Below are positions 526 to 62,115 of a DNA stretch of 64,000 nt, in pieces. This stretch comes from Bordetella parapertussis (lineage in GTDB: Bacteria; Pseudomonadota; Gammaproteobacteria; Burkholderiales; JACQAP01), in contig CAMDKM010000008.1 of assembly GCA_945900965.1 (NCBI GenBank), positions 33,302 through 97,301 on the forward strand, written 5' to 3'. The first letter of the stretch is position 1. Every line of letters starts with the position of its first letter. The notes under the pieces are model-generated. The model had not been told where the DNA came from, did no database searches, and saw nothing but the letters and a program-made list of their open reading frames with translations. The position numbers and the translations under genes were made by a program.

Positions 526-539
526 TTGACTTCGATCAA
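526..539. promoter_or_regulatory. FNR/Anr/Dnr-type box TTGACTTCGATCAA
   Basis: Matches TTGAY-N4-RTCAA. Lies between hsp20 and the small-ORF/HPF genes. Confidence 0.55.
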
Positions 540-572
540 GGTCAGGTGCATGCCCTGTGGTACCGTGAACGC

Positions 573-722
573 ATGAAACCGAGAAGAATGCTTGCCGCGC
601 TACTCGTCGCGCTTGGGGCGGTGATGTTGTTCGCCGCGCCCGAAACTTTCGGCGGCCTGATCGCCATCGCCGCCGGCGTCGTGGTCGAAAGCGTCGGCAT
701 TTTCCTGGAGAAACGCCAATAG
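573..722 (+). CDS. Small two-helix membrane protein, hypothetical
   Basis: Encodes MKPRRMLAALLVALGAVMLFAAPETFGGLIAIAAGVVVESVGIFLEKRQ. The ORF-track start at 504 would read through the box at 526-539, so the start was trimmed. No family recognised. Confidence 0.3.
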   Translation: MKPRRMLAALLVALGAVMLFAAPETFGGLIAIAAGVVVESVGIFLEKRQ

Positions 723-779
723 CGAATGCCGGGCGCATTTGGACATTATTCGATTTTCCCGACCCATCAAAATAAGGCA

Positions 780-1106
780 ATGCAAACCCCCATCCAGATC
801 ACATTCCACGGTATTTCCCACTCGGATGCGCTTGAGGCGCAAATTCGACAGCGGGCCGAAAAACTCGGGGAATTCCATTCGCGCATCATCAGTTGCCGGG
901 CGACGGTGGAAGAATTCCGAAAACACCATCAGCAAGGCCGGCAGTTCCGTGTCAGCATCGATTTGCGGGTGCCGGGCAAGGAAATTGTCGCCAATCGCGA
1001 TCACGATGAAGATGTTTATGTGGCCATGCGTGACGCATTTGATGCCGTCACGCGCCAACTCGAGGAGATTGCCCGTCAGATGCGCGAGGTATCGAGCCGC
1101 ACCTGA
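780..1106 (+). CDS. HPF/RaiA (ribosomal S30Ae) family ribosome-associated factor
   Basis: MQTPIQITFHGISHSDALEAQIRQRAEKLGEFHSRIISCRATVE...DVYVAMRDAFDAVTRQL fits the HPF/YfiA pattern. Start moved to ATG 780. Confidence 0.75.
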   Translation: MQTPIQITFHGISHSDALEAQIRQRAEKLGEFHSRIISCRATVEEFRKHHQQGRQFRVSIDLRVPGKEIVANRDHDEDVYVAMRDAFDAVTRQLEEIARQMREVSSRT

Positions 1107-1113
1107 GGGGAAA

Positions 1114-1776
1114 TCAAACGGACTTGTTTGCTGTGCGCTTACTCGACTGCTGCGACAGGAAGCCGATCACTTCGTTTTCCTCGACTTGGGGAAACCTGCG
1201 ATAAAACTGTGCGACCGCGTAGAACTCCTCGGGCGCTTCGAGGCACACCACTTCATCGGCCAGCGGCCTGACACGCTCCAGGCTGTCGGGCGCCGCAACC
1301 GGTACGGCGCAAATCAAGCGCTGCGGATGTTTGGCGCGCGCGGCATGAAGTGCGGCGATCATTGTCGCCCCGGTAGCCAGGCCATCGTCCACCACGATGA
1401 CGATCCGGTCTTTTGCCTCGATCGATGGTCGTGCAGGCGTGTATTGGGCGCGGCGCTTGCGAAGTGTTTCGCGTTGGGCGCTTTTCTCGCGCTCAATATA
1501 GCCAGGGTCGGCGCCAGAGCTCCTGGCGTGCTCCGCTACATAGGCCCAACCCGATTCATCCACGGCACCCACTGCCAGCTCGGGATTTAAAGGTGCGCGC
1601 AGCTTGCGCACCAGCACCACATCCAACTCGCCTTGCAGTTCGTCGGCCAGCACTTTGCCCATGCCCACCGCGCCGCGCGGGATGGCGAGAATAAGCGGAT
1701 TGCGTCCGCGAAAACGCCCCAGCGCCTGAGCCAGACGCCGCGCGGCATCATTGCGGGAATCGAAATGGATCGTCAT
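1114..1776 (-). CDS. Phosphoribosyltransferase-family protein
   Basis: PRTase loop IVIVVDDGLATGATM is present. Start trimmed to MTIHFDSRNDAARRL because nt 1843-1873 upstream are a REP-like palindrome (gtagggcgcaataagtggagcgcattgcgcc). Confidence 0.8.
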   Translation of the reverse strand: MTIHFDSRNDAARRLAQALGRFRGRNPLILAIPRGAVGMGKVLADELQGELDVVLVRKLRAPLNPELAVGAVDESGWAYVAEHARSSGADPGYIEREKSAQRETLRKRRAQYTPARPSIEAKDRIVIVVDDGLATGATMIAALHAARAKHPQRLICAVPVAAPDSLERVRPLADEVVCLEAPEEFYAVAQFYRRFPQVEENEVIGFLSQQSSKRTANKSV

Positions 1777-1923
1777 CGAAATCACATCATGCGCCGCTGG
1801 CGCCGAGTGTGTTTGCGCAAGGTCAAATGACTCAAAAAAAGCGTAGGGCGCAATAAGTGGAGCGCATTGCGCCGCGCATGTTTGCGAGCGCCGCAAAGCG
1901 GCGCGCAGAGTGATTTAACTATT

Positions 1924-2005
1924 CGCCGTTCACCGTTCACCGATCACCGATCACCCTTCCCCGTTCACGCTCTTACCCTTCACTCATTCACCCATTAACT
2001 TCATT
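1924..2005. repeat. TTCACC/GGTGAA-type short-period array (reverse orientation)
   Basis: Sequence is cgttcaccgttcaccgatcaccgatcacccttccccgttcacgctcttacccttcactcattcaccc. Confidence 0.9.
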
Positions 2006-2966: not shown

Positions 2967-3389
2967 ATGGGTGCCGAGGTGACTGAGAGGAGGATCGCAG
3001 TGCTGAAGCCTGAACAACTGACGAAATTGCGGGCGATGATCGATCAACGCCACATAGCGCTTTCCGCCGAGTTGCACTCCGACGCGGCTCGCTTGAGAAA
3101 CGAGACTTATGGGGAACTTGCCGGTGCGGTGCCGGACAGAGGAGATCAGGCGACCGCGGACGTGATGGCGGATATCGCTCATGCTGATCTGTCGCGCGAT
3201 TTGCGGGAGCTGCGGGCGGTGGAGGCGGCACAGGAACGTATCGCCAGCGGGCAATATGGGTCATGCATGGATTGCGCCGGGAAAATCCCCTTCGAAAGAC
3301 TGCTCGCCCAGCCGACTGCCCTGCGTTGTTTCGATTGCCAGGGGCGTTACGAAAAGAGCCATGTGCATCCGGCAGAGCCGAAGCTTTAG
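2967..3389 (+). CDS. DksA/TraR-family C4 zinc-finger protein
   Basis: C-terminal CMDCAGKIPFERLLAQPTALRCFDCQ motif. A GTG at 3000 with SD gagaggagg is an alternative start. Confidence 0.85.
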   Translation: MGAEVTERRIAVLKPEQLTKLRAMIDQRHIALSAELHSDAARLRNETYGELAGAVPDRGDQATADVMADIAHADLSRDLRELRAVEAAQERIASGQYGSCMDCAGKIPFERLLAQPTALRCFDCQGRYEKSHVHPAEPKL

Positions 3390-3391: not shown

Positions 3392-3510
3392 GTGAACGGT
3401 GATCGGTGAACAGTGAACGGTAGTGAAGGGTGTAAAGGCCGTGAAGGCGTGAATGAGTGAAGGGTGAAGGGTGTAAACCCTCAATCCCCGATCCGCAATC
3501 CTCAATCCCC
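3392..3510. repeat. GTGAAGG/GTGAACG array followed by a CCTCAATCC array
   Basis: Sequence is gtgaacggtgatcggtgaacagtgaacggtagtgaagggtgtaaaggccgtgaaggcgtgaatgagtgaagggtgaagggtgtaaaccctcaatccccgatccgcaatcctcaatcccc. Confidence 0.9.
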
Positions 3511-3524: not shown

Positions 3525-6065
3525 ATGGACTCTGATCCTCATCGCTTGCCTGCTCACACTGGTCTATCCGAGTCCGAGGCGGCGGCACGCCTGCAGCGCT
3601 ACGGGCCCAACGAACTGCCGCGCTCGAAACGTCGGAACGTGCCGGCGATCGCGCTGGAGGTTCTGGGCGAACCGATGTTCATGTTGCTGGTGGCGGGTGG
3701 TGTGATTTATCTGCTGCTGGGGGACTTGCAGGAAGCGCTGATCCTGCTGGTATCGGTGTTTGTCGTGATCGGCATCACAGTTTATCAGGAGCTGAAGACC
3801 GAGCGCGCCCTGGAAGCGCTGCGCGATCTGTCCAGTCCGCGGGCACTGGTGATGCGGGATGGCAAGGAGCGGCGTATCGCCGGGCGGGAGGTGGTTCCCG
3901 GGGATCTCCTGATCCTGCATGAGGGAGATCGGGTGCCGGCCGATGGCGTGATGTTGGAGTGCACCGAACTGTCTGCCGATGAATCCCTGCTGACCGGAGA
4001 ATCCCTGCCGGTTTCCAAGCGCGCAGCGGATGTCGATATTCATGAGATGAGCAAACCCGGAGGTGAGGGACAGCCCTTTGTTTTCTCCGGCACATTGGTG
4101 GTGCAGGGATTTGGCAGAGCGCGCGTTCTTGCCACCGGCGCACGGACGCAAATCGGCGCCATCGGCCGCGCGCTGCAAAGCGTGGAACTCCAAAATACGC
4201 CCCTGCAAGTAAAAACCGCGCAGGTGGTGCGGGTGTTTGCCGGTATAGGACTGTTGTTATGCCTTGCCGTGGTGGTGCTTTACGGCTCGCTGCGCGGCGA
4301 CTGGTTGGCGGGTTTGCTTGCCGGGATCACGCTGGCCATGGCGGTGCTGCCGGAAGAATTTCCGGTGGTACTGACCGTGTTCCTCGCGTTGGGCGCATGG
4401 CGCATCTCGCAGAAAAAAGTGCTGACCCGGCGCATGCCTGCGATTGAAACCCTGGGTTCGGCCACTGTGCTGTGTGTGGACAAGACCGGCACGCTGACGG
4501 AAAACCGCATGGCGGTAGCGGAATTTGCCGCCGCGGGTTATCACCACGATGCCAGGCGCGGCGCCTTGCCGGAATCGGTGATGCCCGTGGTCCGTTTTGC
4601 GGCGCTGGCCTGCGAAACGGATCCTTTCGATCCGATGGAGCGGGCCATTGTTGGCTATGCGGCCGAACACGATGCCGAATCGACGCGGATGCGCAGCCAG
4701 TGGCGGCTCGTGAAGGAATACGACCTGACGCGGGGTCTGCTTGCGGTGACCCATTGCTGGCGCAAGGATGGCGAGATCGTTGTCGCCAGCAAGGGCGCGC
4801 CGGAAGCCATTGCGGCGCTTTGCCGGGCCGATGCTGATCAGACGGCGAGTATCCTGGACGAGACGGCCCGCATGGCCTCGCGGGGACGCAGGGTGCTTGG
4901 GGTAGCGCATGCACGTTTCGAAGGCGGAGAATTCCCTGCCGACCCCGGAGGATTCCAATTTCAATTTGTCGGCTTGATCGCGCTGGCCGATCCGGTACGG
5001 AGTACGGTGCCCCATGCTCTGAAGGAATGTTACGACGCCGGTATCCGCGTAGTGATGATCACCGGCGATTACCCTGGCACGGCGCTGTCGATCGCCCACG
5101 ATATCGGCCTGAAATCGCCGGGCGGAGTGTTGACCGGCGAACAAATCGAGCGCATGAGCAATGCGGAGCTGCGCACACGGGTGGCCGAGGTTGGCATTTT
5201 TGCGCGGGTGGCTCCCGAACAAAAACTTGCGCTGGTCGAGGCGCTGAAGGCGAACGGGGAAATCGTCGCCATGACCGGCGACGGTGTCAACGACGCACCG
5301 GCGCTCAAGAGCGCCCATATCGGCGTGGCCATGGGCGGGCGGGGTACCGACGTGGCGCGCGAGGCCTCCTCTCTGGTGCTGCTCGATGACGACTTCAAAT
5401 CCATCGTCGAGGCGGTGCGCCTTGGCCGGCGCATCTACGACAACATTCTCCACGCCATGATTTACCTGATTGCGGTACATGTACCGACCGCAGGCATGTC
5501 GCTGGTGCCGCTGCTGTTCGGCTGGCCGCTGGTATTCGCGCCGGTGCACATTGTGTTTCTGGAATTTGTCATCGACCCGGCCTGTTCCATTGCTTTCGAA
5601 GCGGAGCCGGGCCATCCCGGCAATATGAAACGTCCGCCGCGCAGCCCCAAGGAACCTTTGCTCGGGGCAAGTTTACTGACCCACGCTTTTATTCAGGGCG
5701 CGGCCATGTTGGTGGCCATCGCCGTCATGTACGGGCTGGTGCTCGATATGGGTTACGGCGAGACGCGGGCACGCGCCATGGCATTCGCCGCGCTGGTGAT
5801 AGGTAACACCGGATTGATTCTCACCAACCGTTCGCGCAGCCGCAATTTGCTGGCGACGCTGCGCATGCCCAACCGGGCATTATGGTGGGTAATCGGTGGC
5901 GCACTCGCAGGGTTGGCGGCGGCGTTGTATCTTCCGCCGCTTCAGGAGGTGTTCCGCTTCGAGGCGCTGGGCGGCACCGATCTGGCGCTGTGCCTGCTGG
6001 CCGCGTCGGCGGGCGTGTTCTGGTCGGAGATGGTTAAGCTGGTGCCCAGATTCAAATTGCAGTAG
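3525..6065 (+). CDS. P-type (P2-like) cation-transporting ATPase, substrate unassigned
   Basis: 846 aa. Contains DKTGTLTEN, MITGDYPGTA and TGDGVNDAPALK. The TM4 motif is LPEEFP rather than PEGLP. Confidence 0.9.
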   Translation: MDSDPHRLPAHTGLSESEAAARLQRYGPNELPRSKRRNVPAIALEVLGEPMFMLLVAGGVIYLLLGDLQEALILLVSVFVVIGITVYQELKTERALEALRDLSSPRALVMRDGKERRIAGREVVPGDLLILHEGDRVPADGVMLECTELSADESLLTGESLPVSKRAADVDIHEMSKPGGEGQPFVFSGTLVVQGFGRARVLATGARTQIGAIGRALQSVELQNTPLQVKTAQVVRVFAGIGLLLCLAVVVLYGSLRGDWLAGLLAGITLAMAVLPEEFPVVLTVFLALGAWRISQKKVLTRRMPAIETLGSATVLCVDKTGTLTENRMAVAEFAAAGYHHDARRGALPESVMPVVRFAALACETDPFDPMERAIVGYAAEHDAESTRMRSQWRLVKEYDLTRGLLAVTHCWRKDGEIVVASKGAPEAIAALCRADADQTASILDETARMASRGRRVLGVAHARFEGGEFPADPGGFQFQFVGLIALADPVRSTVPHALKECYDAGIRVVMITGDYPGTALSIAHDIGLKSPGGVLTGEQIERMSNAELRTRVAEVGIFARVAPEQKLALVEALKANGEIVAMTGDGVNDAPALKSAHIGVAMGGRGTDVAREASSLVLLDDDFKSIVEAVRLGRRIYDNILHAMIYLIAVHVPTAGMSLVPLLFGWPLVFAPVHIVFLEFVIDPACSIAFEAEPGHPGNMKRPPRSPKEPLLGASLLTHAFIQGAAMLVAIAVMYGLVLDMGYGETRARAMAFAALVIGNTGLILTNRSRSRNLLATLRMPNRALWWVIGGALAGLAAALYLPPLQEVFRFEALGGTDLALCLLAASAGVFWSEMVKLVPRFKLQ

Positions 6066-8139: not shown

Positions 8140-9156
8140 CTACAACCCGAACAGACGCACGACTTCGAAGTACACCACAAGAGAGAGCACATCTTGCACG
8201 ATCGTTCCGATCGGCCCGGCACCGAGGGCGGGGTCGCGCCCCAGACGAGCAAAAGCCCAGGGCAGTGAAATGCCCAGCACGGCGGCGACGCACCCGGCGG
8301 TGAGAATGGCGCTGGCGACCGCCGCAGATAGCCGCAGGTCGCCGAATGCGAGGTGAACTGCCGGAAATGCGCAGGCGCCAAGGGCAAGACCGATCAACAG
8401 TCCGGTACGCAGTTCGCCGGCTACCAGCTTGGCAATTCCGGAGCGTGTCAGGGACAGGCCACGGACCGCAATGGCTTCGCTCTGCGTGCCGATGGCGTCG
8501 GCAAGATAGACGATCGCGGGTACAAAAAACGCGACTGCGACATTCTCCTGTAACACTGATTCGAATTGCGTCATCGTTACCGTTGCAACACCACTGCCGG
8601 CCAGCCCCACCAGCAGCCAGGGCAGGCGGTGGCGTACTTGCCGCATTGGCGGATCCTCGATGGCGTGGCGTGCTTTGGCGGTTTCGTGTCGAATGCCGGC
8701 GAGCCGATGCAAGTCCTCCACATGCTCTTTGCGCAGCACCTGCATGATTATCTGTGCAGGCATCACCCCTAGCGGTCGGCCCTCCGCGTCAACCACCGGC
8801 AAGGCATCGACGCCATGGTGCAGGGCGATCGTGGCGGCTCGCTCCTGGTCCTCGGCACCGCTGACACGTGGGAAGGACGCATCGATGGCGGTCCCGACCG
8901 GCGTTGCCGGATCGAGGTTGATCAATCTTGCGATTGGTACCACACCTTCCAGCCGGCCGGTGTCGTCAGCGACAAGGATCAGTTCGATGTTCTCGTGACC
9001 GGCGCCATGCAGCCTGGAAAGCACCACACTGGCCGGTTCGGCATGGGCTACGATAGGAACGTTGGCGACGACATGCGTAGCAACCGTCTCATCAGCCAGA
9101 GGCAGAGGTGAGTGAATGTCAGGGCTTTCATGGGGCATACTCATTGGTGAAATCAT
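8140..9156 (-). CDS. MgtE-family divalent-cation transporter (CBS pair plus MgtE membrane domain, no MgtE_N domain)
   Basis: Contains LPVVDAEGRPLGVM (CBS) followed by FVPAIVYLADAIGTQSEAIAVRGL...GTIVQDVLSLVVYF. Confidence 0.8.
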   Translation of the reverse strand: MISPMSMPHESPDIHSPLPLADETVATHVVANVPIVAHAEPASVVLSRLHGAGHENIELILVADDTGRLEGVVPIARLINLDPATPVGTAIDASFPRVSGAEDQERAATIALHHGVDALPVVDAEGRPLGVMPAQIIMQVLRKEHVEDLHRLAGIRHETAKARHAIEDPPMRQVRHRLPWLLVGLAGSGVATVTMTQFESVLQENVAVAFFVPAIVYLADAIGTQSEAIAVRGLSLTRSGIAKLVAGELRTGLLIGLALGACAFPAVHLAFGDLRLSAAVASAILTAGCVAAVLGISLPWAFARLGRDPALGAGPIGTIVQDVLSLVVYFEVVRLFGL

Positions 9157-9179: not shown

Positions 9180-9193
9180 TTGATCGGCATCAA
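9180..9193. promoter_or_regulatory. FNR-type box TTGATCGGCATCAA (perfect)
   Basis: Lies between the divergent mgtE-like and NSS genes. It is only 24-37 nt from ATG 9156, so the mgtE-like start or the target gene is uncertain. Confidence 0.55.
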
Positions 9194-9257
9194 GCGCTTG
9201 CGCATGCCTTTGCCCATCATGCAAATGAAATAAGGAAACACTGAAAAAGTTCCAATT

Positions 9258-9344
9258 TGTCATTCCCATGGAAACGGGAATCCAGGACTTTCAAAGAACA
9301 CTGGTTCCCCGCTTGCGTGGGGAAGACACTTATTCAGTATTTCC
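9258..9344. mobile_element. Partial copy of the RS3-core MITE (left TIR missing)
   Basis: tgtcattcccatggaaacgggaatccag...ggggaagacacttattcagtatttcc aligns to the reverse complement of 23284-23398. Confidence 0.75.
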
Positions 9345-9400
9345 ATAAAGAAGCTGCTTACTCGAACGTTTTGTCAGCAGGAAATCACAAGGACATCTTG

Positions 9401-10762
9401 ATGGAAAACGGGGAAAAATGGTCGGGGCGAACAGGGTTCATTCTGGCGACCATGGGTTCGGCGGTCGGCATCGGCAGCATCTGGAAATTTCCCTACGAAG
9501 TCGGATCCAATGGCGGCGGTGCCTTTGTCCTCTGCTACCTGGCAGGTCTGGTGCTGGTCGTTGCGCCGCTGTTGCTCGCCGAGTTTGCTATCGGACGCCG
9601 TGGCCGCGGCGACGCGTCAACGAGCATCGCCAATCTGGCCAGGCCTCTGGCGGCCAGTCCGCGTTGGGTCGTCGCGGGTTGGCTGGGTATGGTCACCGGG
9701 TTTCTTATCCTGAGTTTCTATGCCGTCATCGGGGGCTGGGCGCTGGGTTACGCTATGGATACCGCGTTTAACGGGCTGGCTGGCGGCGATGCAGCCATGG
9801 CGCGCGCCCGTTTCGACGCATTCCTGTCTTCGCCTTTCTCTCTCGGTGGGTGGCATGCGGCATTTATGCTTGCAACAGTTTTTATCGTCGCCCGGGGCGT
9901 GGCAAAAGGCATCGAGGCCGCTTCCATGATCCTCATGCCCGTACTCGCCGTCCTGATGATCGCACTTGCCGCCTATTCGATCATTGAGGGCGACGCCCTG
10001 CGCACTCTGCGTTACCTCTTTGTCTTCGACCCGGCAACATTTAATGCGCGTGCCGCGCTGGATGCCTTGGGCCTGGGCTTTTTTTCAATTGGCGTCGGCC
10101 TTGGGCTGATGATTACCTACGGCGCCTACAGCGGTAAGGATATCCGTCTGGGCGAAGTAGCGTTGATCTCGGTGATCGGCGACACGGCCATTTCTATCCT
10201 TGCGGGATTTGCGGTATTTCCCGTCGTGTTTGCCCACGGCCTCGACCCGGCGAGCGGGCCCGGCCTGGTGTTCGTGACGTTGCCAATCGCCTTTGCCCAG
10301 ATGCCTTTCGGCACATTTGCGGCCATCGCATTTTTTGTATTGCTCGTCGTGGCGGCGCTTGCCTCCGCGGTGTCACTATTGGAACTCGTGGTTTCGTTCG
10401 GAGTCGGCAGACTGGGAATGCGACGAATCCATGCGAGCTGGGCCGCTGGCGCGGGCTGCTTCCTGGCGGGAATCCCGACCGTACTCTCGTTCAACCTGCT
10501 GGCCGACTGGCATCCCCTTTCCGGGATTGCCGCTTTCGAACGCTGGACTTTTTTCGACATGCTGGACAACCTGACTTCCAATGTCCTGCTACCGGTTGGG
10601 GGGCTTCTTATCGCGCTCTTCGCCGGTTGGGTACTTCCGATGACAACGATCAGCGAGGAATTGAATCTGGGAAGACGCGGCCGAATGATATTGCATGGGC
10701 TGCTTCGCTATGTGGTTCCCACCGGTATCGGCGCCGTGACGCTTTTGCCGTTGTTCCTGTAA
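9401..10762 (+). CDS. Neurotransmitter:sodium symporter (NSS/SNF) family transporter
   Basis: GSAVGIGSIWKFPYEVGSNGGGAFV signature and a multi-TM body. Start moved to ATG 9401 because the ORF-track TTG start lies in the MITE fragment. Confidence 0.9.
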   Translation: MENGEKWSGRTGFILATMGSAVGIGSIWKFPYEVGSNGGGAFVLCYLAGLVLVVAPLLLAEFAIGRRGRGDASTSIANLARPLAASPRWVVAGWLGMVTGFLILSFYAVIGGWALGYAMDTAFNGLAGGDAAMARARFDAFLSSPFSLGGWHAAFMLATVFIVARGVAKGIEAASMILMPVLAVLMIALAAYSIIEGDALRTLRYLFVFDPATFNARAALDALGLGFFSIGVGLGLMITYGAYSGKDIRLGEVALISVIGDTAISILAGFAVFPVVFAHGLDPASGPGLVFVTLPIAFAQMPFGTFAAIAFFVLLVVAALASAVSLLELVVSFGVGRLGMRRIHASWAAGAGCFLAGIPTVLSFNLLADWHPLSGIAAFERWTFFDMLDNLTSNVLLPVGGLLIALFAGWVLPMTTISEELNLGRRGRMILHGLLRYVVPTGIGAVTLLPLFL

Positions 10763-10792
10763 CTCTAAGCCGGACAAGCCTGAATTTACCTG

Positions 10793-10842
10793 AGAAGTGA
10801 ACGAGTGAATGTGTGAAGGGTGAAGGGTGAAAGGTAAAAAAG
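10793..10842. repeat. GTGAA-type array
   Basis: Sequence is gagaagtgaacgagtgaatgtgtgaagggtgaagggtgaaaggt. Confidence 0.85.
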
Positions 10843-10893
10843 CAAACGCATCGCATTGCGGCGCTCTATTCACCGTAAACCGCATTTCCAGCG

Positions 10894-13867: not shown

Positions 13868-13885
13868 GGTAATGACACTTGAGGA
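13848..13885. mobile_element. 28-bp RS3-core mini-insertion plus a 10-bp direct duplication (cacttgagga)
   Basis: cacttgagga occurs at 13838-13847 and 13876-13885, flanking ccctggattcccgtttccacggtaatga. Confidence 0.7.
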
Positions 13886-35690: not shown

Positions 35691-35694
35691 ATTC

Positions 35695-40045: not shown

Positions 40046-40075
40046 CAGTCCGGATTGATCAAGCGGAGTGCGTAC

Positions 40076-50299: not shown

Positions 50300-50451
50300 C
50301 CCGTGAGTCGACGGACGCATCTTGTGCCGATTGACGTTTCCATAATGCACGGCACCAAGGGCCCCTTATCTCAACCCTTCTGCCCCGCTTCAAGTGTTCC
50401 CTTGTCCTGGAGGAAAAGGGCTTTTTGGCTCCCGCTCCCTCGGGCACAGGC

Positions 50452-52687: not shown

Positions 52688-52701
52688 TTGATGGAGATCA
52701 A
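52688..52701. promoter_or_regulatory. FNR-type box TTGATGGAGATCAA (perfect)
   Basis: Lies 76-89 nt upstream of the MCO ATG 52612. Confidence 0.65.
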
Positions 52702-53178: not shown

Positions 53179-53868
53179 CTATTGCCGGCTCGAAGTCAAT
53201 TCCGCCAGCGCTTTCGGGTCCAGCACGTTGACCCGCTCGCGTTCCAGTCTTACCCAGCCGCGCTCCTCGAAACTGCGCAGCAGCCGGCTGACAATTTCGC
53301 GCACGCTGCCGAGTTCATCGGCGAGCTTCTGGTGGGTGGATAGCACCAGCGGTCCACGATGGACCAGAAGTTGCGCCAAACGCGCATCCAGCCTGCGAAA
53401 CGCCACTTCCTCCACCAGTTCCATCACTTCCGCCAGACGTTCCCCGTACATACCGAAGACGAAACGCCTGAAGGGCTCGAATTCGATCATGAGGTCGTGG
53501 AATAGCTGGGGTGGAATGCTGAGATACACCACATCACGCTCGGCGATTCCGGTCGCCGAATAATCCGAGTGCCCGAGCAGACAGCCACCCGAAAGAATGC
53601 AGCCCTGGCCGGGTTCCACCCGGTAGAGCAGGATCTCGCGGCCGCCGGGGGAGGTCTTGGCCACGCGCACGCTGCCTTCGATCAGGAGCGGAAAGCCGCG
53701 GCAGGGCTGTCTGGCGTCGAAAAGAATGCCGCCTGCGCTCGCGCGATGCCACTGCGCCTGGTCGATGAGTCCGTCGAGCCGCGCGTCCGGCAATTCGGCG
53801 AACACGGGGAAACGCTCCAGCAACTGCCGGCGACGCGCGTCTTTATTGTTGGCTGTAACAATTGTCAT
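53179..53868 (-). CDS. CRP/FNR-family regulator without an N-terminal Cys cluster (Dnr/NnrR-like)
   Basis: cNMP-like barrel plus an HTH with REIVSR (E--SR) in the recognition helix. No CX2CX5C motif. Confidence 0.85.
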   Translation of the reverse strand: MTIVTANNKDARRRQLLERFPVFAELPDARLDGLIDQAQWHRASAGGILFDARQPCRGFPLLIEGSVRVAKTSPGGREILLYRVEPGQGCILSGGCLLGHSDYSATGIAERDVVYLSIPPQLFHDLMIEFEPFRRFVFGMYGERLAEVMELVEEVAFRRLDARLAQLLVHRGPLVLSTHQKLADELGSVREIVSRLLRSFEERGWVRLERERVNVLDPKALAELTSSRQ

Positions 53869-53975: not shown

Positions 53976-53989
53976 TTGATGGAGGTCAA
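53976..53989. promoter_or_regulatory. Candidate FNR-type box TTGATGGAGGTCAA
   Basis: Lies about 110 nt upstream of the dnr-like gene, but overlaps the possible ATG 53979 of the DUF2892 gene and contains its ggagg. Confidence 0.35.
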
Positions 53990-54222: not shown

Positions 54223-54672
54223 ATGATGACGACCGCAGTGATCGAGCGCGTGCATGTGGTGTGCCCGGCGTGTCTGGCGGAAAACCGGGTGCCGGCAGGG
54301 CGCCTGGATGAGGCGCCCAAGTGCGGCAAGTGCGGAGCGGATTTGCTCGACGGCAAACCTACGGCACTTGACGGAACGGGTTTCAATACCTTTGTCGAAA
54401 AAAATTCCCAGCCGGTGCTGGTGGATTTCTGGGCCGCATGGTGCGCGCCCTGCCGGGCGATGGCGCCGGCATTCGAGGCCGCAGCCGCCGATCTGCGCAC
54501 CAAAGTGCGTTTCGCCAAGGTCGATACGGACAAGACACCGACCGTCTCAATGCGTCACCGTATCCGCGGCATCCCGACGCTGGTCCTGTACAAGGATGGA
54601 ATGGAGGCCGCCCGTACTTCGGGTGCGATGGACAAGGCATCGTTGCTGCGCTGGATTGCACAACATGCGTAA
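54223..54672 (+). CDS. trxC: Thioredoxin 2 (zinc-finger N-terminal extension)
   Basis: CPACLAENRVPAGRLDEAPKCGKCG followed by WAAWCAPCR. Confidence 0.9.
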   Translation: MMTTAVIERVHVVCPACLAENRVPAGRLDEAPKCGKCGADLLDGKPTALDGTGFNTFVEKNSQPVLVDFWAAWCAPCRAMAPAFEAAAADLRTKVRFAKVDTDKTPTVSMRHRIRGIPTLVLYKDGMEAARTSGAMDKASLLRWIAQHA

Positions 54673-54675
54673 AGT

Positions 54676-54830
54676 TAGGAAGTGATTAAGTGATTAAGTG
54701 ATTAAGTGATTAAGTGATTAAGTGAATGAGTGAAGGGTGATCGGTAAACGGCGAAAGTTGAAGCGGGATGGCGTGAATGAGTGAAGGGTGAACACCCTAG
54801 CCCCTAATCCCTGAACTTGGTGCCTCCCCC
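54676..54830. repeat. Array starting with a perfect 8-bp x5 microsatellite (gtgattaa, 54682-54721), then GTGAA and CCCTAATCC units
   Basis: Read directly from the sequence. Confidence 0.9.
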
Positions 54831-54944: not shown

Positions 54945-55241
54945 TCAACTCAAGTAGTCTTGCGCCAGCGACGCCGTGGTCGCCGGCATGTTCTCGGGGG
55001 TCTGAATGACCAGACGTTCGACATTGCAGCCCATGACGCGTACCGCCGTTTCGAACTGAAGCGGGGAAACTCTGTAAGCGTCAAAGATCACAGTAACGCG
55101 ACGATTCTCCGGCGCGGGGTCGACATGCTGGACCCCGCGAATGGACTCCAGCGCGCTGCATACGCCCCGCGATGCTGGCCCGGGGATGAGTCCTCGGATC
55201 TTCAATTCCGCCATCCGCATCAACACTTGCATGATTGCCAT
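54945..55241 (-). CDS. Small HMA-like protein without a CxxC motif, paralog B
   Basis: Contains ELKIRGLIPGPASRGVCSALESIRGVQHV...VIFDAYRVSPLQFETAVRVMGCNVERL. Confidence 0.6.
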   Translation of the reverse strand: MAIMQVLMRMAELKIRGLIPGPASRGVCSALESIRGVQHVDPAPENRRVTVIFDAYRVSPLQFETAVRVMGCNVERLVIQTPENMPATTASLAQDYLS

Positions 55242-55307: not shown

Positions 55308-55321
55308 TTGATCTATATCAA
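55308..55321. promoter_or_regulatory. FNR-type box TTGATCTATATCAA (perfect)
   Basis: Lies 67-80 nt upstream of ATG 55241 on the minus strand. Confidence 0.65.
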
Positions 55322-55397: not shown

Positions 55398-55411
55398 TTG
55401 ACCTGAATCAA
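55398..55411. promoter_or_regulatory. FNR-type box TTGACCTGAATCAA
   Basis: Lies 59-72 nt upstream of the USP ATG 55470. Confidence 0.65.
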
Positions 55412-55469: not shown

Positions 55470-55922
55470 ATGAGAATTCTGCTCCCAGTAGATGGCTCGC
55501 AAGCCGCCGAACATGCGGCGAAGGCGTTAATTCGCTATTTGCCAGATTGGCGATCGAATCCGGAAATCGACTTGATGTTTGTCAATCTGCCAATTAAGGC
55601 CTTGCCCACTTTCCGAGGCTCCACGGAGGAAAAAGAAATCATTGAAAAATATTACAAGACCGAAGCCGATCAGGCGAAGGCCGGGGTGAAGAACTTACTC
55701 AAGGCCGCCCGCGTCGAATTTACCGAATCCAGCGCCGTGGGCGAGCCGGCGGAAGAGCTCTGCAAGGCGGCCAAGGAAAGAAAATGCGACATGATCTGGA
55801 TGGGAACTCGCGGTCTGAGCACCCTGGGAAATCTGTTGTTGGGTTCCATCGCGACCAAGGTTGTGCATCGGTCAACTGTGCCAGTGGTGCTGGTGCGACC
55901 GGAAGATGCTGCCCGGAATTGA
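55470..55922 (+). CDS. Universal stress protein (UspA family)
   Basis: Contains MRILLPVDGS and GSIATKVVHRSTVPVVLVR. Confidence 0.9.
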   Translation: MRILLPVDGSQAAEHAAKALIRYLPDWRSNPEIDLMFVNLPIKALPTFRGSTEEKEIIEKYYKTEADQAKAGVKNLLKAARVEFTESSAVGEPAEELCKAAKERKCDMIWMGTRGLSTLGNLLLGSIATKVVHRSTVPVVLVRPEDAARN

Positions 55923-56399: not shown

Positions 56400-56413
56400 T
56401 TGATCCCGGTCAA
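56400..56413. promoter_or_regulatory. FNR-type box TTGATCCCGGTCAA
   Basis: Lies between the divergent cytochrome c gene (66 nt away) and USP gene (about 100 nt away). Confidence 0.65.
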
Positions 56414-58429: not shown

Positions 58430-59212
58430 TCAGTGCGTCTGGCCGACGATTTCGCGCAGCCCTTGTACGTTGGTGATGCGTACGTGTTTTTGCTGCACCG
58501 AAATGTGGCCGGTTTCCTGCAGCCGGGAGAACAGGCGGCTGACCGTTTCGAGCTTCAGACCCAGATAACTGCCGATTTCTTCGCGGGTCATGCGAAGGTA
58601 AAACTCCGAAGGCGAGTAGCCCCGGGCGGTGAAACGTTGCGACAAATTGAGCAGAAAAACGGCCAGGCGTTCCTCGGCGGACATACTGCCCAGCAGCATC
58701 ATGATGCCGTGATCGCGCACGATTTCCCTCGACAACACCGCGTGCAAATTGCGTTGCAGTGCGCGGACCTTGCTGGTGGCCTCTTCGATGCCGGCGTAGG
58801 GCATGACACAAACTTCGCTGTCCTCCAGCGCGATGGCCGTGGCGTCCTGCCGGTTGGACCCCAGTCCGTCCAGGCCAAGCAGTTCGCCGCCCATGAAGAA
58901 CCCGGTCACCTGTTCGCGTCCGTCGTTGTCGACGACACTGGACTTGAAAAATCCGCTGCGCACCGAGTAGATGGCGGCAAAGGGGTCACCGGCATGAAAC
59001 AGGATTTCCCCGCGTTTGATGCGGCGCCGGGAAGTGACCACTTGATCCATGCACTGTATGACCTCCTCGGACATGCCACGCGGCAGACAGAGTTCGCGAA
59101 GATTGCAGTTGGTGCAGGTTCCCTTGGCAATTGCGGGAAATGCGGCCTCCTGTGTCGTCGTCATCAAGGGAACAACTCTGAGCGGTATACGTGCCACGGC
59201 AGCGGTTTGCAT
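58430..59212 (-). CDS. fnr: FNR (oxygen-sensing [4Fe-4S] CRP/FNR-family regulator)
   Basis: CTNCNLRELC (CX2CX5C), central Cys (SEVCVMP) and an HTH with ETVSR. The start is ATG 59212 or ATG 59164. Confidence 0.9.
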   Translation of the reverse strand: MQTAAVARIPLRVVPLMTTTQEAAFPAIAKGTCTNCNLRELCLPRGMSEEVIQCMDQVVTSRRRIKRGEILFHAGDPFAAIYSVRSGFFKSSVVDNDGREQVTGFFMGGELLGLDGLGSNRQDATAIALEDSEVCVMPYAGIEEATSKVRALQRNLHAVLSREIVRDHGIMMLLGSMSAEERLAVFLLNLSQRFTARGYSPSEFYLRMTREEIGSYLGLKLETVSRLFSRLQETGHISVQQKHVRITNVQGLREIVGQTH

Positions 59213-59232: not shown

Positions 59233-59646
59233 TTAGTGAACGGTCTGGTGGGCGAGCGTGACAATTGCCCGGTGCAATTCCGCGAATTGATGGCTCTTGT
59301 CGAAATACGCCGAGGCGCCCAGCTCCAGGGCGACGCGCCGGTAGAGGGGGGGCGAACAATTACTCAGCATGTAATAAACAATGGTCGGCATGTGCGGCCG
59401 AACCTTGCGCAATACCTCCAGGCCGCTGCCCTGCGCCAGTTGCAAGTCAAGCAGCACCACGTTGGGGTGTGCTTCGAGAATGCCCCGGATTGCGTCACCG
59501 GCTGTGCTGGCGTGCCCGGCATTAAAAGTACCGGGGATTTCCGCGAGCATTTCCTCGAGGCGCACACGCACGATGGGCGAGTCTTCGACGATGAATACCC
59601 CAAGTTGGGCTTCCGACACGGGAGGCGATTGATTTAGTGAATTCAT
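59233..59646 (-). CDS. Receiver-only response regulator, directly upstream of fnr
   Basis: Contains VFIVEDSPIVRVRL...PNVVLLDLQLAQGSGLEVL...LSN...ASAYFDKS. There is a 20-nt gap to fnr. Confidence 0.85.
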   Translation of the reverse strand: MNSLNQSPPVSEAQLGVFIVEDSPIVRVRLEEMLAEIPGTFNAGHASTAGDAIRGILEAHPNVVLLDLQLAQGSGLEVLRKVRPHMPTIVYYMLSNCSPPLYRRVALELGASAYFDKSHQFAELHRAIVTLAHQTVH

Positions 59647-59724: not shown

Positions 59725-59746
59725 GGGGTAGGAAATTTCCTACCCC
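59725..59746. promoter_or_regulatory. Perfect 22-bp palindrome ggggtaggaaatttcctacccc, candidate operator
   Basis: Lies about 80-100 nt upstream of the RR-fnr operon. Contains TACCCCT/TACCCCG half-sites. Confidence 0.4.
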
Positions 59747-59905
59747 TTGCCGAAATGGCCGGTAGTCATGGCGTCGCCTTATGGATCTGACGCCCTATCG
59801 GCAGCCGGTCGAACTTTGCCGTTCGAAAACGAAAAGATGGGAGAGCGAGGAAAGATTTGAAGATTTTCAGCGAGTCTTGCGAATAGAGAATGGACCACTT
59901 CTCAT

Positions 59906-60060
59906 GGCACTACCTTAATAAAGGCGCAGTACGTAGCCCGTATGCAGCGCAGCGGAATACGGGGAAAATGCACAGTTGCGGCACCATTACCCGGATTGCG
60001 CTGCGCTCCATCCGGGCTACATACCATGGTTGTCCCGGCATCCGGTTCTAAGGTAGTGCC
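59906..60060. repeat. Nested palindromic REP/MITE-like element
   Basis: Outer 12-bp inverted repeat ggcactacctta/taaggtagtgcc. Inner arms gtagcccgtatgcagcgcagcggaatacggg / cccggattgcgctgcgctccatccgggctac. Confidence 0.8.
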
Positions 60061-60122
60061 TGAAGATCAGATTCGACTATTCGCCTGATTTCCCGGGCGA
60101 CAGGTCGGAAAGCACCGATTTC

Positions 60123-60767
60123 TCAGCCGTCGGCGTTGCGCTCCAGCAGGCCATGCTCCAGGGCGTAGCGCACCAGTTCCGCCGAGTTGGCGAGATTCAT
60201 TTTTTCCAGGACATGGGTCTTGTGCGTGCTGACGGTTTTGACCGACAGGTTGAGTCGTTGTCCAATCTCGGTCAGCCCATGGCCTTGCGCGATGAATTTG
60301 AAGATTTCAAATTCCCGATCGGAGAGCCGGGTATGGGGCGGGGTGTCTCCGCGTACCGTTGCGGCCAGCAGCACCTGGGTGGCGGAGTCGGAGAGGTAAA
60401 CGCCGCCCTGGGCGATCTTGCGTATGGCGACGATAAGTTGTTCGGATGCGCAGTCCTTTGTTAGATAGCCCAATGCGCCGGCCCTGAGCGCGCGGGCCGC
60501 GTACTGGTTTTCGGCGTGCATCGACAGCACGAGCATGCGCAGTTTCGGTTTTTCCAGTTTCAGGCGCTTGATGAGTGCAATGCCGGACAAGCCCGGCATC
60601 GACAGGTCGAGCACTGCGATATCGAATTCCCGGGCTTTTGCCTGGGCGAGTGCCTCGTCCCCGGTAGCGGCTTCGGCCGCAATTTCGATATCCGCGCTTT
60701 GGCCGAGAATCTGCTTGAGCCCTTCGCGAACCAGTTGATGATCGTCGGCCAGCAGCAGGCGGATCAT
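60123..60767 (-). CDS. NarL/FixJ-family response regulator (REC plus LuxR HTH)
   Basis: Contains MIRLLLADDHQLVREGL, DIAVLDLSMPGLSG, and LSDREFEIFKFIAQGHGLTEIGQRLNLSVKTVSTHK. Confidence 0.92.
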   Translation of the reverse strand: MIRLLLADDHQLVREGLKQILGQSADIEIAAEAATGDEALAQAKAREFDIAVLDLSMPGLSGIALIKRLKLEKPKLRMLVLSMHAENQYAARALRAGALGYLTKDCASEQLIVAIRKIAQGGVYLSDSATQVLLAATVRGDTPPHTRLSDREFEIFKFIAQGHGLTEIGQRLNLSVKTVSTHKTHVLEKMNLANSAELVRYALEHGLLERNADG

Positions 60768-60770
60768 GGA

Positions 60771-62084
60771 CTACTCCGTTGGGAGGGGGGGCTGCAAGGG
60801 GACCTGTACGCTCACCCGGGTTCCGCCCAGAGGCGTTTGGCCGATATCGAGGGTGCCGCCGACATGATTTGCGCGTTGGCGCATGCCACGGATGCCCAGA
60901 GTACGTGTTTTGCCCAGATCATCGGGGGCAATGCCGCGCCCGTCATCCTCGACTTCCAGTTGCAATACCCCGTCATCGATCGCCAGCCGTATCCAGGTAT
61001 TGCGTGCCTGGGCATGGCGCGCAACATTGGTCAGCGCCTCCTGCAGGATGCGGAACAGGGTCATGACGCGGCCACGATTCAGTTCCGCCAGGGCATCCTC
61101 GGCGGGCATCTGGATGTCGCATGGGATGCCGAAACGTTCGGAGAAGTCTTCGGCCAGCCAGGCAACGGCATCGGGAAATCCCAGGTCATCGAGCATCAGC
61201 GGGCCCAGGTGCGCCGAAATACGGCGCACCGAGGCAATCGTCTGGTCCAATGTGTGATTCATGCGCCCGGCTTTGGCAGCCGTTGCCGCATCGCCATCCG
61301 GCAGACGGTCGCGCAGCCAGATCAGATCCATTTTCAGCGCGGTCAACAACTGGCCGAGTTCGTCGTGCAATTCGCGCGCGATGCGGGTTTTTTCTTCTTC
61401 GCGGGCTTCGTGAATCTGGCCTGACAGCACATGGAGTTCGTGCTGGTGGAGTTTGATTTTTTCTTCCTGGCTGCAGCGCTCGCTGACATCGCGCAGAATC
61501 ACGGTAAACAATTGGCCCCCCTCTCCCGAGCTGTGCGATATCGACGCTTCGATCGGAAATTCCTCGCCGCTGTCAAGGCGCCGCGCCCATAACACGGTGG
61601 TGTCGCCCATACGGCGGCTGGTTACCCCGGTTTTTCCGAAGGTTTCCACATGGTTCCGGTGCGCGGCGTGAAAGCGCTCAGGTATGAAGCGGTCGAGGGA
61701 GGCGCCCAGCGCCTGGTCACGTCGGCAGCGAAACAACTGTTCCGCCGCCCGGTTGAACAGAACGATGCGCAGCCCGGCGTCCACGGTGATGATGGCATCC
61801 ATGGCGGAATGCACAATGGTGGCCAGTCTTGCCTCGGTGACGTCCAGCCTGTCGGACAGGTGCCGAGATTGGACCCGGGCACCCAAGGCGGTGCGCGTAA
61901 TGATAAGTAGGAACGCCCCGATCAGCGCCAAATCGATCATCGAGTCCAGTGCATCCAGCCAAGGCCGGTCCTCGGGGTACCGCTGGATGGCGAAATGCAC
62001 CACCAATTCCGCGGCGACGACACCGATCGTGGCCGCGATCATCCAGGGTTTGATGGTAGAACGCACCGACATTTCAGGCTTCAA
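60771..62084 (-). CDS. Membrane PAS HisKA_3 sensor histidine kinase
   Basis: Two TM helices, a PAS domain (IITVDAGLRIVLFNRAAEQLF...IPERFHAAHRNHVETF), H-box ARELHDELGQ and an HATPase domain. Confidence 0.9.
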   Translation of the reverse strand: MKPEMSVRSTIKPWMIAATIGVVAAELVVHFAIQRYPEDRPWLDALDSMIDLALIGAFLLIITRTALGARVQSRHLSDRLDVTEARLATIVHSAMDAIITVDAGLRIVLFNRAAEQLFRCRRDQALGASLDRFIPERFHAAHRNHVETFGKTGVTSRRMGDTTVLWARRLDSGEEFPIEASISHSSGEGGQLFTVILRDVSERCSQEEKIKLHQHELHVLSGQIHEAREEEKTRIARELHDELGQLLTALKMDLIWLRDRLPDGDAATAAKAGRMNHTLDQTIASVRRISAHLGPLMLDDLGFPDAVAWLAEDFSERFGIPCDIQMPAEDALAELNRGRVMTLFRILQEALTNVARHAQARNTWIRLAIDDGVLQLEVEDDGRGIAPDDLGKTRTLGIRGMRQRANHVGGTLDIGQTPLGGTRVSVQVPLQPPLPTE

Positions 62085-62101
62085 ACCTTCAAACTGATTG
62101 A

Positions 62102-62115
62102 TTGATACATATCAA
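62102..62115. promoter_or_regulatory. FNR-type box TTGATACATATCAA (perfect)
   Basis: Lies 77-90 nt upstream of the hemN ATG 62192 and 18 nt from the divergent kinase start. Confidence 0.75.

Follow-up and report, generated by a model that had tools for sequence, protein, structure and literature searches.

Gene content of the window

The DNA analysed here (the window) is a 64-kb stretch of contig CAMDKM010000008.1 from an uncultured betaproteobacterium, a soil member of the Burkholderiales. It contains 19 short palindromes of the form TTGAY-N4-RTCAA, and the evidence presented below supports the view that these boxes are sites of an FNR-family activator and that most transcription units of the window would belong to one low-oxygen regulon. 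Two regulators of the Crp/Fnr family are encoded in the window, a canonical FNR and a second protein of a different clade. The closest relatives among species-representative genomes are soil and sediment metagenome-assembled genomes, which show 60-80% identity for the second regulator.

The gene map was made from open reading frames (ORFs) and from Pfam and NCBIfam scans of the window. At the start of the window lie, in order, an HSP20 gene, a small membrane ORF with an HPF/RaiA-like gene, a phosphoribosyltransferase gene, a DksA-like gene with a P-type ATPase gene, a PAS-GGDEF-EAL gene, and MgtE-like and NSS transporter genes. A block consisting of PIN, ADH-fragment and hydrolase genes is free of boxes. 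The respiratory part comprises ccoN, ccoO, ccoP, ccoG and a DsbD_2 gene, a YgaP-like transmembrane gene with ccoI, and a DUF5666 gene, and the signalling genes are those of a CHASE-PAS kinase and a REC-only regulator. The denitrification part contains nirK, fused to a cytochrome c domain and accompanied by nirV-like, SCO1 and porin genes, as well as mlaC, a cytochrome c gene and hicAB. In the middle of the window are the genes of a FixL-type haem-PAS GGDEF-EAL protein with a SulP transporter, an orphan cydB-like gene, an MFP-RND-DUF302 operon, a block of PEMT, holin-like and YqjK genes, and a multicopper oxidase gene. The regulatory end carries the second Crp/Fnr regulator, thioredoxin 2, an HMA-like ORF, a universal stress protein (USP), a cytochrome c, a second USP with CBS and BCAM0308-family proteins, fnr, a REC-only protein, a NarL-type regulator, a PAS kinase and hemN.

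The HPF/RaiA-like gene (frame 726/780-1106, + strand), which lies behind a 44-aa membrane ORF, matches Pfam Ribosomal_S30AE with 62 bits. NirK matches the Cu nitrite reductase family TIGR02376 with 359 bits; its gene, with the C-terminal cytochrome c domain, forms an operon at 29780-34041 (- strand) with genes for an FGE-sulfatase (NirV-like) protein, SCO1/SenC and an Alginate_exp-type porin, and a stretch of 6.5 kb with this operon is matched identically by contig L001 of the public run ERR5863202. The BCAM0308-family protein reaches 168.5 bits with the NCBIfam equivalog lxa_BCAM0308 (cut-off 100). In the GGDEF-EAL protein encoded at 37784-40045, the first PAS domain matches the haem domain of BjFixL (1e-33) and keeps the equivalents of H200, R206, H214 and R220; the label 'heme-PAS', given to this gene in an earlier first-pass annotation of the window, is borne out by this FixL-type match and the retained His and Arg residues of the haem pocket. 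The cydB-like gene (41838-42938, - strand) is divergent and orphan, without cydA, and scores 101 bits with TIGR00203 (cut-off 117), the N-terminal part alone matching. An exact-protein look-up of the multicopper oxidase returned no record, and no orthologous locus of it was recovered. A search of the whole window for known RNA families in Rfam yielded no match above the gathering score.

Number and placement of the boxes

A pattern search of the 64-kb window identified 19 exact matches to the box (TTGAYNNNNRTCAA). They are given below with their predicted targets and with the hexamers resembling a -10 element, whose offset is counted in nucleotides past the box edge.

Box 526-539 (TTGACTTCGATCAA): predicted targets on the + strand, a small membrane ORF (588-722) and the HPF/RaiA-like gene (780-1106); TACCGT 21 nt downstream, predicted transcription start site (TSS) at ~573.
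Box 2918-2931, perfect: dksA-like gene (3000-3389) and P-type cation ATPase gene (3525-6065) on the + strand; TAACGT at offset 22.
Box 9180-9193, perfect: divergent, between the MgtE-like gene (8140-9144, -) and the NSS/SNF transporter gene (9401-10762, +); -10-like hexamers on both sides.
Box 20330-20343: upstream of ccoN-ccoO-ccoP-ccoG (-, ccoN start 20104); TAACAT at offset 22.
Box 23431-23444: between the YgaP-like transmembrane gene with ccoI (-, start 23212) and the DUF5666 gene (+, start 23775); weak CAAAGT at offset 22 on the - side.
Box 25720-25733: upstream of the REC-only response regulator gene (25195-25677, -); TAACAT at offset 22.
Box 28456-28469: 54-66 nt upstream of the CHASE-PAS-PAS-HisKA_3 kinase gene (25730-28396, -); function less certain, because no -10-like hexamer is present at the canonical spacing.
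Box 28831-28844, perfect: in a gene-poor stretch of 1.4 kb, nearest candidate target a 76-aa signal-peptide ORF (29077-29307, +); only a weak hexamer, at offset 20.
Box 34105-34118: upstream of nirK (cytochrome c fusion), nirV-like, SCO1 and porin genes (-, start 34041); TAACGT at offset 22.
Box 34865-34878: divergent, between mlaC (-, start 34756) and the cytochrome c gene (+, start 34939); TAGCGT and TAGCCT at offset 21.
Box 37674-37687, perfect: upstream of the haem-PAS GGDEF-EAL gene (37784-40045, +) and the SulP-STAS gene (40055-41830, +); no canonical -10 at offset 21-22.
Box 43050-43063 (TTGAC...GTCAA): between the orphan cydB-like gene (-) and the MFP-RND-DUF302 operon (+, start 43156); TAGCAT at offset 21 on the + side only.
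Box 52688-52701, perfect: upstream of the gene of the 699-aa multicopper oxidase (50513-52612, -); CAATAT at offset 22.
Box 53976-53989: between the gene of the second Crp/Fnr regulator (-, start 53868) and the thioredoxin 2 gene (+, start 54223).
Box 55308-55321, perfect: upstream of a 98-aa HMA-like ORF (54945-55241, -), whose HMA match is weak (E = 0.017); CAGAAT at offset 22.
Box 55398-55411: upstream of the first USP gene, USP1 (55470-55922, +); GAGGAT at offset 22.
Box 55572-55585: within the USP1 coding sequence, hexamers at offsets 21-22 on both sides; function doubtful, perhaps an internal site or a chance match. Its upstream flank AATCGAC is also found at box 34865.
Box 56400-56413: divergent, between a cytochrome c gene (-, start 56334) and the operon of the second USP (USP2), CBS and BCAM0308-family genes (+, start 56515); hexamers on both sides.
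Box 62102-62115, perfect: divergent, between hemN (+, start 62192) and the operon of PAS kinase and NarL-type regulator (-, start 62072); CAATGT at offset 22 on the hemN side.

All 18 coordinates listed in the first-pass annotation are correct, and the match at 55572 had been overlooked. The number of perfect TTGAT-N4-ATCAA boxes is seven rather than the eight claimed (starts 2918, 9180, 28831, 37674, 52688, 55308 and 62102). In dinucleotide-preserving shuffles of the window, the mean number of matches was 0.26 and the maximum 2, and none of the 100 shuffles reached 19. The G+C content is ~59% throughout the window.

The non-coding share of the window is 17.1% in the gene map made here, and 17 of the 19 boxes are wholly inside it (binomial P = 1e-11). 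The description of the boxes as intergenic therefore holds for these 17; the two exceptions are box 25720, which runs 4 nt into the CHASE kinase gene at its stop codon, and the intragenic box 55572. Box density amounts to 1.55 per kb of non-coding versus 0.04 per kb of coding DNA, so that the similar coding density named beforehand as evidence against the regulatory reading was not seen within the window. The overall density of 0.30 per kb is that of this window; the related loci described below, which were picked around regulators, have 0.09 per kb. The box-to-start distances reported earlier were reproduced for nirK (64 nt), cytochrome c (61 nt), the multicopper oxidase (76 nt), hemN (77 nt), the HMA-like gene (67 nt) and USP (59 nt). 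The same is true of the 61 nt given for the heme-PAS GGDEF-EAL gene, which becomes 97 nt with the ATG at 37784 that has a Shine-Dalgarno sequence. Approximately 22 of the ~31 transcription units counted from the gene map have a box, that is, most of them and not 'almost every operon'. The unboxed units include the PIN/ADH/hydrolase block, hicAB, the PEMT-holin-YqjK block, REC-fnr and the phosphoribosyltransferase gene.

Three further candidates concerning the boxes were considered and set aside. Allowing one mismatch added 11 sites versus ~6 expected, the majority within coding sequence; 18628 and 58303 are intergenic and 62183 abuts the hemN start. Being near chance and mostly coding, these variants were not counted as additional sites. 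The sequences of 25 nt on either side of each box show no relatedness among the boxes, which are therefore isolated palindromes, and these unrelated flanks rule out their origin as parts of a repeat element. A division into two classes, with TTGAT..ATCAA for FNR and TTGAC..GTCAA for a second regulator, gave no separation, and the ccoN and hemN genes of the relatives also use the C/G variants.

Promoter geometry

A -10-like hexamer of the form NANNNT, often TAACGT, TAACAT or TAGCNT, recurs 21-22 nt past the box edge. In the window, 12 of the 38 box orientations have such a hexamer at offset 22 (background 2.0 per offset). In the related contigs, it is found at offset 21-22 in 132 of 252 orientations versus 14.7 expected, covering 113 of the 126 boxes. 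The hexamers thus form a sharp peak at offset 21-22 in both the window and its relatives, and TSS positions were predicted from it. This spacing would place the box centre ~41 bp upstream of the predicted start, which is the geometry of class II FNR/CRP-family activators. At promoters of this class, the box stands in for the -35 element. Hexamers are present on both sides of the box at six divergent regions (9180, 34865, 53976 and 56400, and more weakly 25720 and 62102). At box 43050, for which either an RND pump or an orphan cydB had been proposed as target, the promoter geometry favours the RND operon and not cydB.

Conservation of the boxes in related loci

We collected 148 related loci and determined, for homologues of the window genes, how often the 300 nt upstream contain an exact box; the chance expectation is 0.028 per 300 nt. 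The numbers of covered loci with a box are as follows.

hemN: 25 of 25.
ccoN: 5 of 5.
PAS kinase gene: 19 of 28.
USP2 gene: 7 of 16.
MgtE-like gene: 2 of 5.
Thioredoxin 2 (Trx2) gene: 11 of 30.
Second Crp/Fnr regulator gene: 16 of 54.
RND gene, operon-internal: 0 of 21.
ccoG, operon-internal: 0 of 13.
ccoP, operon-internal: 0 of 10.
Response regulator gene, operon-internal: 0 of 32.
fnr: 1 of 67.

Conserved boxes thus precede only the first genes of operons in the relatives, and the internal genes have none. Boxes also lie upstream of homologues of the P-type ATPase or DksA-like genes (L009, L091, L100 and L136), of the MgtE-like gene (L103, L104 and L147) and of the NSS gene (L031). In L148, a box stands directly before an HPF homologue, and a paired box adjoins an HMA-like homologue in L070. 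The relatives' MFP-RND genes lie within a Trx2-MFP-RND operon behind a box, and the box sequence at 53976 (TTGACCTCCATCAA) recurs in L012, L027, L069 and L070. Several of the targets that had been called unusual therefore appear to be conserved members of the regulon.

FNR and the genes that precede it

The regulatory genes next to hemN are all on the - strand and are listed below together with the candidate operator among them.

58430-59212, -: fnr, whose product, a canonical FNR/Anr regulator of the [4Fe-4S] type, is likely to be the main reader of the boxes.
59233-59646, -: REC-only response regulator gene (Pfam Response_reg, 59 bits), separated from fnr by 20 nt and probably the first gene of the fnr operon.
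59727-59744: palindrome GGTAGGAAATTTCCTACC, ~90 nt upstream of REC-fnr, a candidate operator for the adjacent NarL/FixJ-type regulator.
60123-60767, -: NarL/FixJ-type response regulator gene (REC and GerE helix-turn-helix domains).
60771-62072, -: PAS-HisKA_3 sensor kinase gene.

The FNR protein possesses the cysteines C33-X2-C36-X5-C42 and C135 and aligns over its full length with FNR of Aliivibrio fischeri (5CVR; 7e-54), the cysteines being in register. Its recognition helix, of the E--SR type that specifies TTGAT, is ETVSR, aligned with ETISR of FNR. The earlier proposal of an FNR with a CX2CX5C motif as a reader of the boxes is thus upheld in that the four cluster cysteines and the ETVSR helix are present, binding being predicted; the E--SR recognition helix ascribed to both Crp/Fnr proteins was likewise found (ETVSR in FNR, REIVSR in the second regulator).

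In dozens of metagenomic contigs, the genes are arranged in the order hemN, box, PAS kinase, NarL-type regulator, palindrome, one or two REC genes and fnr, often followed by a USP gene; in most of 80 metagenomic loci, fnr comes after one or two REC genes. The motif GTAGG-N6-CCTAC (with at most one mismatch) was detected in 33 of 46 regulator-to-fnr intervals of the relatives, for which we estimate a chance frequency of ~0.02 per interval. The palindrome, which takes the form nTAGGA-N4-TCCTAn, also occurs at positions 2604-2619 of L009. A scan for the sigma-70 consensus upstream of fnr found nothing. The NarL-type regulator is under every NCBIfam equivalog cut-off (FixJ, 83.9 versus 255). The PAS domain of the kinase is related to the haem PAS domains of FixL and DosP (BjFixL, 7e-11) with the proximal His aligned, and the positions of R206 and R220 (distal Arg) are not kept; the kinase scores 58.6 with the FixL equivalog (cut-off 850) and has a HisKA_3 domain. 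The most economical reading of this arrangement would be that the palindrome is the site through which the adjacent regulator controls fnr, and that FNR feeds back on the kinase operon via box 62102.

Proposed regulation of the island

Taken together, it is likely that the window is a low-oxygen-activated island of the type of the lxa locus of Burkholderia cenocepacia, fused with cco (cbb3 oxidase), nirK and hemN genes, and that its boxes are read by FNR at class II promoters lacking a -35 element. The interpretation of the boxes as FNR sites is based on their intergenic placement, the class II spacing, their conservation in relatives with 55-80% protein identity, and the presence of a complete FNR in the window. 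They are assigned to FNR because this protein is canonical and because classical targets are present: ccoN, hemN, nirK and USP genes are textbook targets of FNR, Anr and FixK. Induction of the island at low oxygen is what we infer from these features.

Approximately 17 of the 19 boxes would be activator sites of class II, -35-less promoters. At low oxygen, FNR (58430-59212) would retain its [4Fe-4S] cluster, dimerise and bind TTGAY-N4-RTCAA centred ~41 bp upstream of each transcription start, and it would recruit RNA polymerase to the -10 hexamer 21-22 nt past the box, possibly in both directions at the six divergent regions. The predicted respiratory targets are the high-affinity cbb3 oxidase, the Cu nitrite reductase, two c-type cytochromes and oxygen-independent haem synthesis (hemN). 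Dormancy and stress functions would be represented by the two USP genes, the CBS and BCAM0308-family proteins and HPF, and ion transport by the P-type ATPase with the DksA-like protein and by the MgtE-like, NSS and SulP transporters. The FixL-type haem-PAS GGDEF-EAL protein would link the regulon to cyclic di-GMP (c-di-GMP) turnover, and the RND pump, the multicopper oxidase and further signalling proteins are other putative targets. The fnr gene has no box of its own and lies behind the boxed operon of PAS kinase and NarL-type regulator, an arrangement that may give positive feedback, with the conserved TAGGA-N6-TCCTA palindrome before fnr as the likely site of the regulator. Such a circuit would resemble FixLJ-FixK, yet its terminal regulator would itself be an oxygen sensor. 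The second Crp/Fnr paralogue, with its E--SR helix, probably shares its own box and those of the Trx2, YgaP-like and MFP-RND genes. The sites with their placement, spacing and conservation and the sequence features of the regulators are observations; binding, oxygen dependence, the assignment of regulators to boxes and the link between regulator and palindrome are predicted features of this proposal.

Several observations weigh against this interpretation. One box (55572) is intragenic, and boxes 28456, 37674 and 28831 have no good -10 at the canonical spacing. The predicted 5' untranslated regions (UTRs) are long for ccoN (~190 nt), Trx2 (~200 nt) and NSS (~175 nt). The FNR protein passes the cut-off of the NCBIfam model Fnr (NF008365) only marginally (228.1 versus 228 bits). 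The related loci share ancestry, and the counts obtained from them overstate the number of independent observations. In addition, the two regulators have the E--SR helix in common, and more regulators may be encoded beyond the window.

The second Crp/Fnr regulator

The gene of the second Crp/Fnr regulator (53179-53868, - strand) belongs to what we call the Cys-triad clade, which resembles the structure 3DV8. The protein, described in the first-pass annotation as Cys-less and Dnr/NnrR-like, in fact contains three conserved cysteines, C56, C90 and C96, which are kept in 55, 56 and 53 of 56 homologues, respectively, including those of Anaerolineae, Chthonomonadaceae and Eubacterium rectale (3DV8); the cysteines, which lie in the sensor domain, are conserved from Burkholderiales to Firmicutes and Bacteroidota. 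It matches 3DV8 with 101 bits (7e-28) versus 23 bits (4e-4) for DNR of Pseudomonas aeruginosa (3DKW), and no NCBIfam family reaches its cut-off. The affiliation with Dnr is also at odds with the neighbours, which are Trx2 and RND rather than nir or nor genes: nirK is 19 kb away in the window, and it did not appear beside the regulator in the relatives' loci. The conserved neighbours are a divergent Trx2-MFP-RND operon and genes for DUF302, YgaP-like transmembrane, OsmC and pyridine-nucleotide-disulfide oxidoreductase proteins. The second regulator is accordingly placed in an uncharacterised, putatively redox-linked clade and not with Dnr or NnrR.

The Cys-triad clade is widespread (loci L003-L070), 3DV8 is its only solved structure, and its members may be thiol or reactive-sulfur sensors. 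The neighbours of the homologue in Bergeyella (L063) encode a TauE sulfite exporter, an MBL-rhodanese fusion, a rhodanese, OsmC and OEP-MFP-RND proteins, and in Flavobacteriales a Cys-triad homologue lies within a cluster of persulfide dioxygenase-rhodanese, TauE, OsmC and RND genes; the clade could therefore be a sensor of reactive sulfur. For PgRsp of Porphyromonas gingivalis, a study that took 3DV8 as the modelling template describes a redox sensor that binds haem and belongs to a 'novel family' (PMC6955866).

A tentative extension, which we regard as possible though not probable, is that three sensors converge on one box: the pair of PAS kinase and NarL-type regulator would act on fnr via TAGGA-N6-TCCTA, FNR would sense oxygen, and the Cys-triad protein would share the box. 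The latter might then add a thiol, persulfide or haem-redox input at the promoters of the Trx2, YgaP-like and MFP-RND-DUF302 genes. If true, the clade could be the first Crp/Fnr-family sensor of reactive sulfur species.

Alternative readings of the boxes

We consider it unlikely that the boxes are read mainly by the second regulator, acting as a cysteine- or haem-based redox sensor or as a reactive-sulfur sensor, so that the island would answer thiol, sulfide or redox stress and not oxygen itself. The R-E-x-x-S-R helix of this protein, the exact box before its homologues in 16 of 54 relatives, the retention of its three cysteines across phyla (3DV8 included), its synteny with Trx2, YgaP-like transmembrane, DUF302, OsmC and RND pump genes, the position of the Bergeyella homologue among TauE, MBL-rhodanese, rhodanese and OsmC genes, and the haem-binding redox function described for PgRsp (PMC6955866) are all consistent with such a role. 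However, the boxes of hemN, ccoN and the kinase gene are kept in many fnr-bearing loci, and the second regulator was not met in the stretches retrieved around fnr. The presence of the textbook targets ccoN, hemN, nirK and USP also argues for FNR, 13 of the 56 homologues of the second regulator have Val in place of the box-contacting Glu, and no feature of the boxes separates two classes.

It is still less probable, and in our judgement very unlikely, that the regulon is driven by the two-component system in the manner of FixLJ or DosSR, with the box protein as a passive relay of the FixK type whose abundance, and not any oxygen sensing by the protein, sets expression. The conserved order of kinase, regulator, palindrome, REC and fnr would fit this arrangement, as would the relationship of the kinase PAS to the FixL haem PAS with its aligned proximal His and the nearly complete absence of boxes before fnr (present in 1 of 67 relatives), and a FixLJ-FixK-Lxa model has been proposed for Burkholderia (PMC12071387). 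Nevertheless, the four FNR cluster cysteines are all present in the regulator of the boxes, unlike in FixK proteins, and align with those of a solved FNR, whereas the kinase is without the distal Arg and carries HisKA_3 instead of the HisKA of FixL, and the NarL-type regulator is under the FixJ cut-off.

That the boxes have no regulatory role, having arisen by chance or as pieces of an intergenic repeat or mobile element, is refuted as far as sequence analysis can reach and has a negligible probability: the window is rich in intergenic repeats (8-nt arrays, REP-like palindromes and MITE-like elements, two copies of the last 31-37 nt from boxes), but no shuffle in 100 reaches 19 matches, the box flanks are unrelated, the spacing to the -10 hexamers is fixed, and the boxes are conserved only upstream of orthologous first genes.

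Repeats and other elements of the window

An element of ~118 nt that resembles a miniature inverted-repeat transposable element (MITE) is present in two full copies (9231-9348 and 23282-23399) and one relic (13826-13877), with 20-nt terminal inverted repeats (TAAGGAAACACTGAATAAGT...). With 82% identity to each other and an FNR box at a distance of 31-37 nt, the full copies would fall in the 5' UTRs of the box-driven transcripts of NSS and of YgaP-like with ccoI. The element lies at the predicted TSS of box 9180 (+) and of box 23431 (-), and an FNR-activated small RNA was considered; with its terminal repeats and decayed third copy, the element is more plausibly a MITE that inserted into two 5' UTRs.

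Tandem arrays of an 8-nt unit (GTGAAKGR, e.g. GTGAATGAGTGAAGGG) are intergenic and mostly situated just past the 3' ends of genes (3441-3476, 10781-10846, 35494-35559, 36764-36829 and 54664-54806, and in reverse complement 1926-2000, 44218-44253 and 49217-49237). G+C-rich palindromes resembling repetitive extragenic palindromic (REP) elements were found at 59950-60030, 1842-1873 and 28472-28503 (e.g. GCGCAATAAGCGCAGCGCATTGCGCC and AGCCCGGATGGAGCGCAGCGCAATCCGGG). REP-like palindromes and ~470 nt of non-coding DNA separate the NarL-type regulator gene from REC-fnr, a gap that is usually 20-150 nt in the relatives.

A direct duplication of 267 nt (35202-35468 and 36501-36767, 96% identity), accompanied by one of 59 nt (35136-35194 and 36440-36498, 86%), repeats the 3' end of the cytochrome c gene. 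The copies are 1.3 kb apart and flank a HicB-containing cassette (35207-36204), an arrangement that looks like an insertion accompanied by a target duplication. Another 59-nt direct repeat (78%) links the long ccoN leader (20198-20256) with a site just downstream of the multicopper oxidase gene (50362-50420).

Comparison with known systems

Among known systems, the window comes nearest to the lxa locus of B. cenocepacia J2315 (Sass et al. 2013), which comprises 50 genes in ~51 kb that are induced 2- to 240-fold at low oxygen and has an Anr/FNR-like inverted repeat (TGA-N6-TCA) at 17 intergenic points (PMC3721108). This locus holds genes for six USPs, alpha-crystallin, a SulP-family transporter, a cytochrome c and a cation ATPase, and an Anr-related CRP regulator adjoins a response regulator and a kinase (PMC3721108). 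For Burkholderia, a 2025 review proposes a chain of FixLJ, FixK and Lxa, and it treats the motif as the Anr box (PMC12071387). This precedent had been missed in the first-pass annotation, as had the palindrome upstream of fnr, the REC gene before fnr and the HPF/RaiA gene.

The window is similar to lxa in scale, with 64 kb and 19 boxes versus ~50 kb, ~50 genes and 17 motif points, and in content, both having several USPs, HSP20/alpha-crystallin, SulP, cytochrome c, a cation P-type ATPase and an Anr-related regulator with a two-component system. The window also has the BCAM0308-family equivalog, the one gene for which orthology is established. It differs from lxa in adding ccoNOP-ccoG with ccoI, nirK and hemN, in having targets unlisted for lxa (HPF, MgtE-like, NSS, the multicopper oxidase, the RND pump and the haem-PAS GGDEF-EAL protein), and in a gene map without genes for polyhydroxyalkanoate synthesis, ribonucleotide reductase, ribokinase or acetate kinase. 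Furthermore, its host is an uncultured soil member of the Burkholderiales and not a Burkholderia, and the induction of lxa was measured, whereas the window is known from sequence.

With Anr/Dnr of P. aeruginosa and FNR of Escherichia coli, the window shares the TTGAT-N4-ATCAA box in class II position, centred near -41.5, and the cbb3 oxidase, hemN and USP genes as targets; like the Anr/Dnr system, it combines a canonical Fe-S FNR with a second Crp/Fnr paralogue that has the same recognition helix. In contrast to both systems, whose targets are scattered, those of the window are clustered, and its fnr lies downstream of a two-component system. Its paralogue is not Dnr, as indicated by the score of 23 bits, the conserved cysteines and the linkage to Trx2/RND instead of nir/nor.

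The FixLJ-FixK systems of rhizobia, Caulobacter and the Burkholderia cepacia complex are similar in that a PAS kinase and a LuxR-type regulator adjoin a Crp/Fnr gene, in the box before the genes of the cbb3 oxidase (fixNOQP of rhizobia), hemN and nirK, and in that the kinase operon appears to be autoregulated. However, the terminal regulator of the window retains the FNR cysteine cluster, its kinase has HisKA_3 and an incomplete FixL haem pocket, and one or two REC-only genes stand between the regulator gene and fnr. The likeness to DosR of Mycobacterium tuberculosis is a functional analogy only: hypoxia-induced USPs, alpha-crystallin, a cation ATPase and a ribosome hibernation factor are found in both, as are a HisKA_3-class kinase and a NarL-type regulator, but DosR has its own palindrome and no Crp/Fnr protein as master regulator.

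This type of island is hence already known from lxa, and the window would be a well-supported further case of it. Clustered FNR-box islands for dormancy and low oxygen, known in a pathogen, would now extend to uncultured soil Burkholderiales, where the island has merged with genes for microaerobic respiration and denitrification. The comparison adds HPF, the DksA-like protein with the P-type ATPase, MgtE-like, NSS, the RND pump and the haem-PAS c-di-GMP enzyme as conserved candidate members of the regulon, and the boxes and the palindrome upstream of fnr as testable cis elements. The more novel threads are the conserved candidate operator before fnr and the Cys-triad Crp/Fnr clade, which, with its linkage to thioredoxin, rhodanese and RND genes, may outweigh the regulon itself in value.

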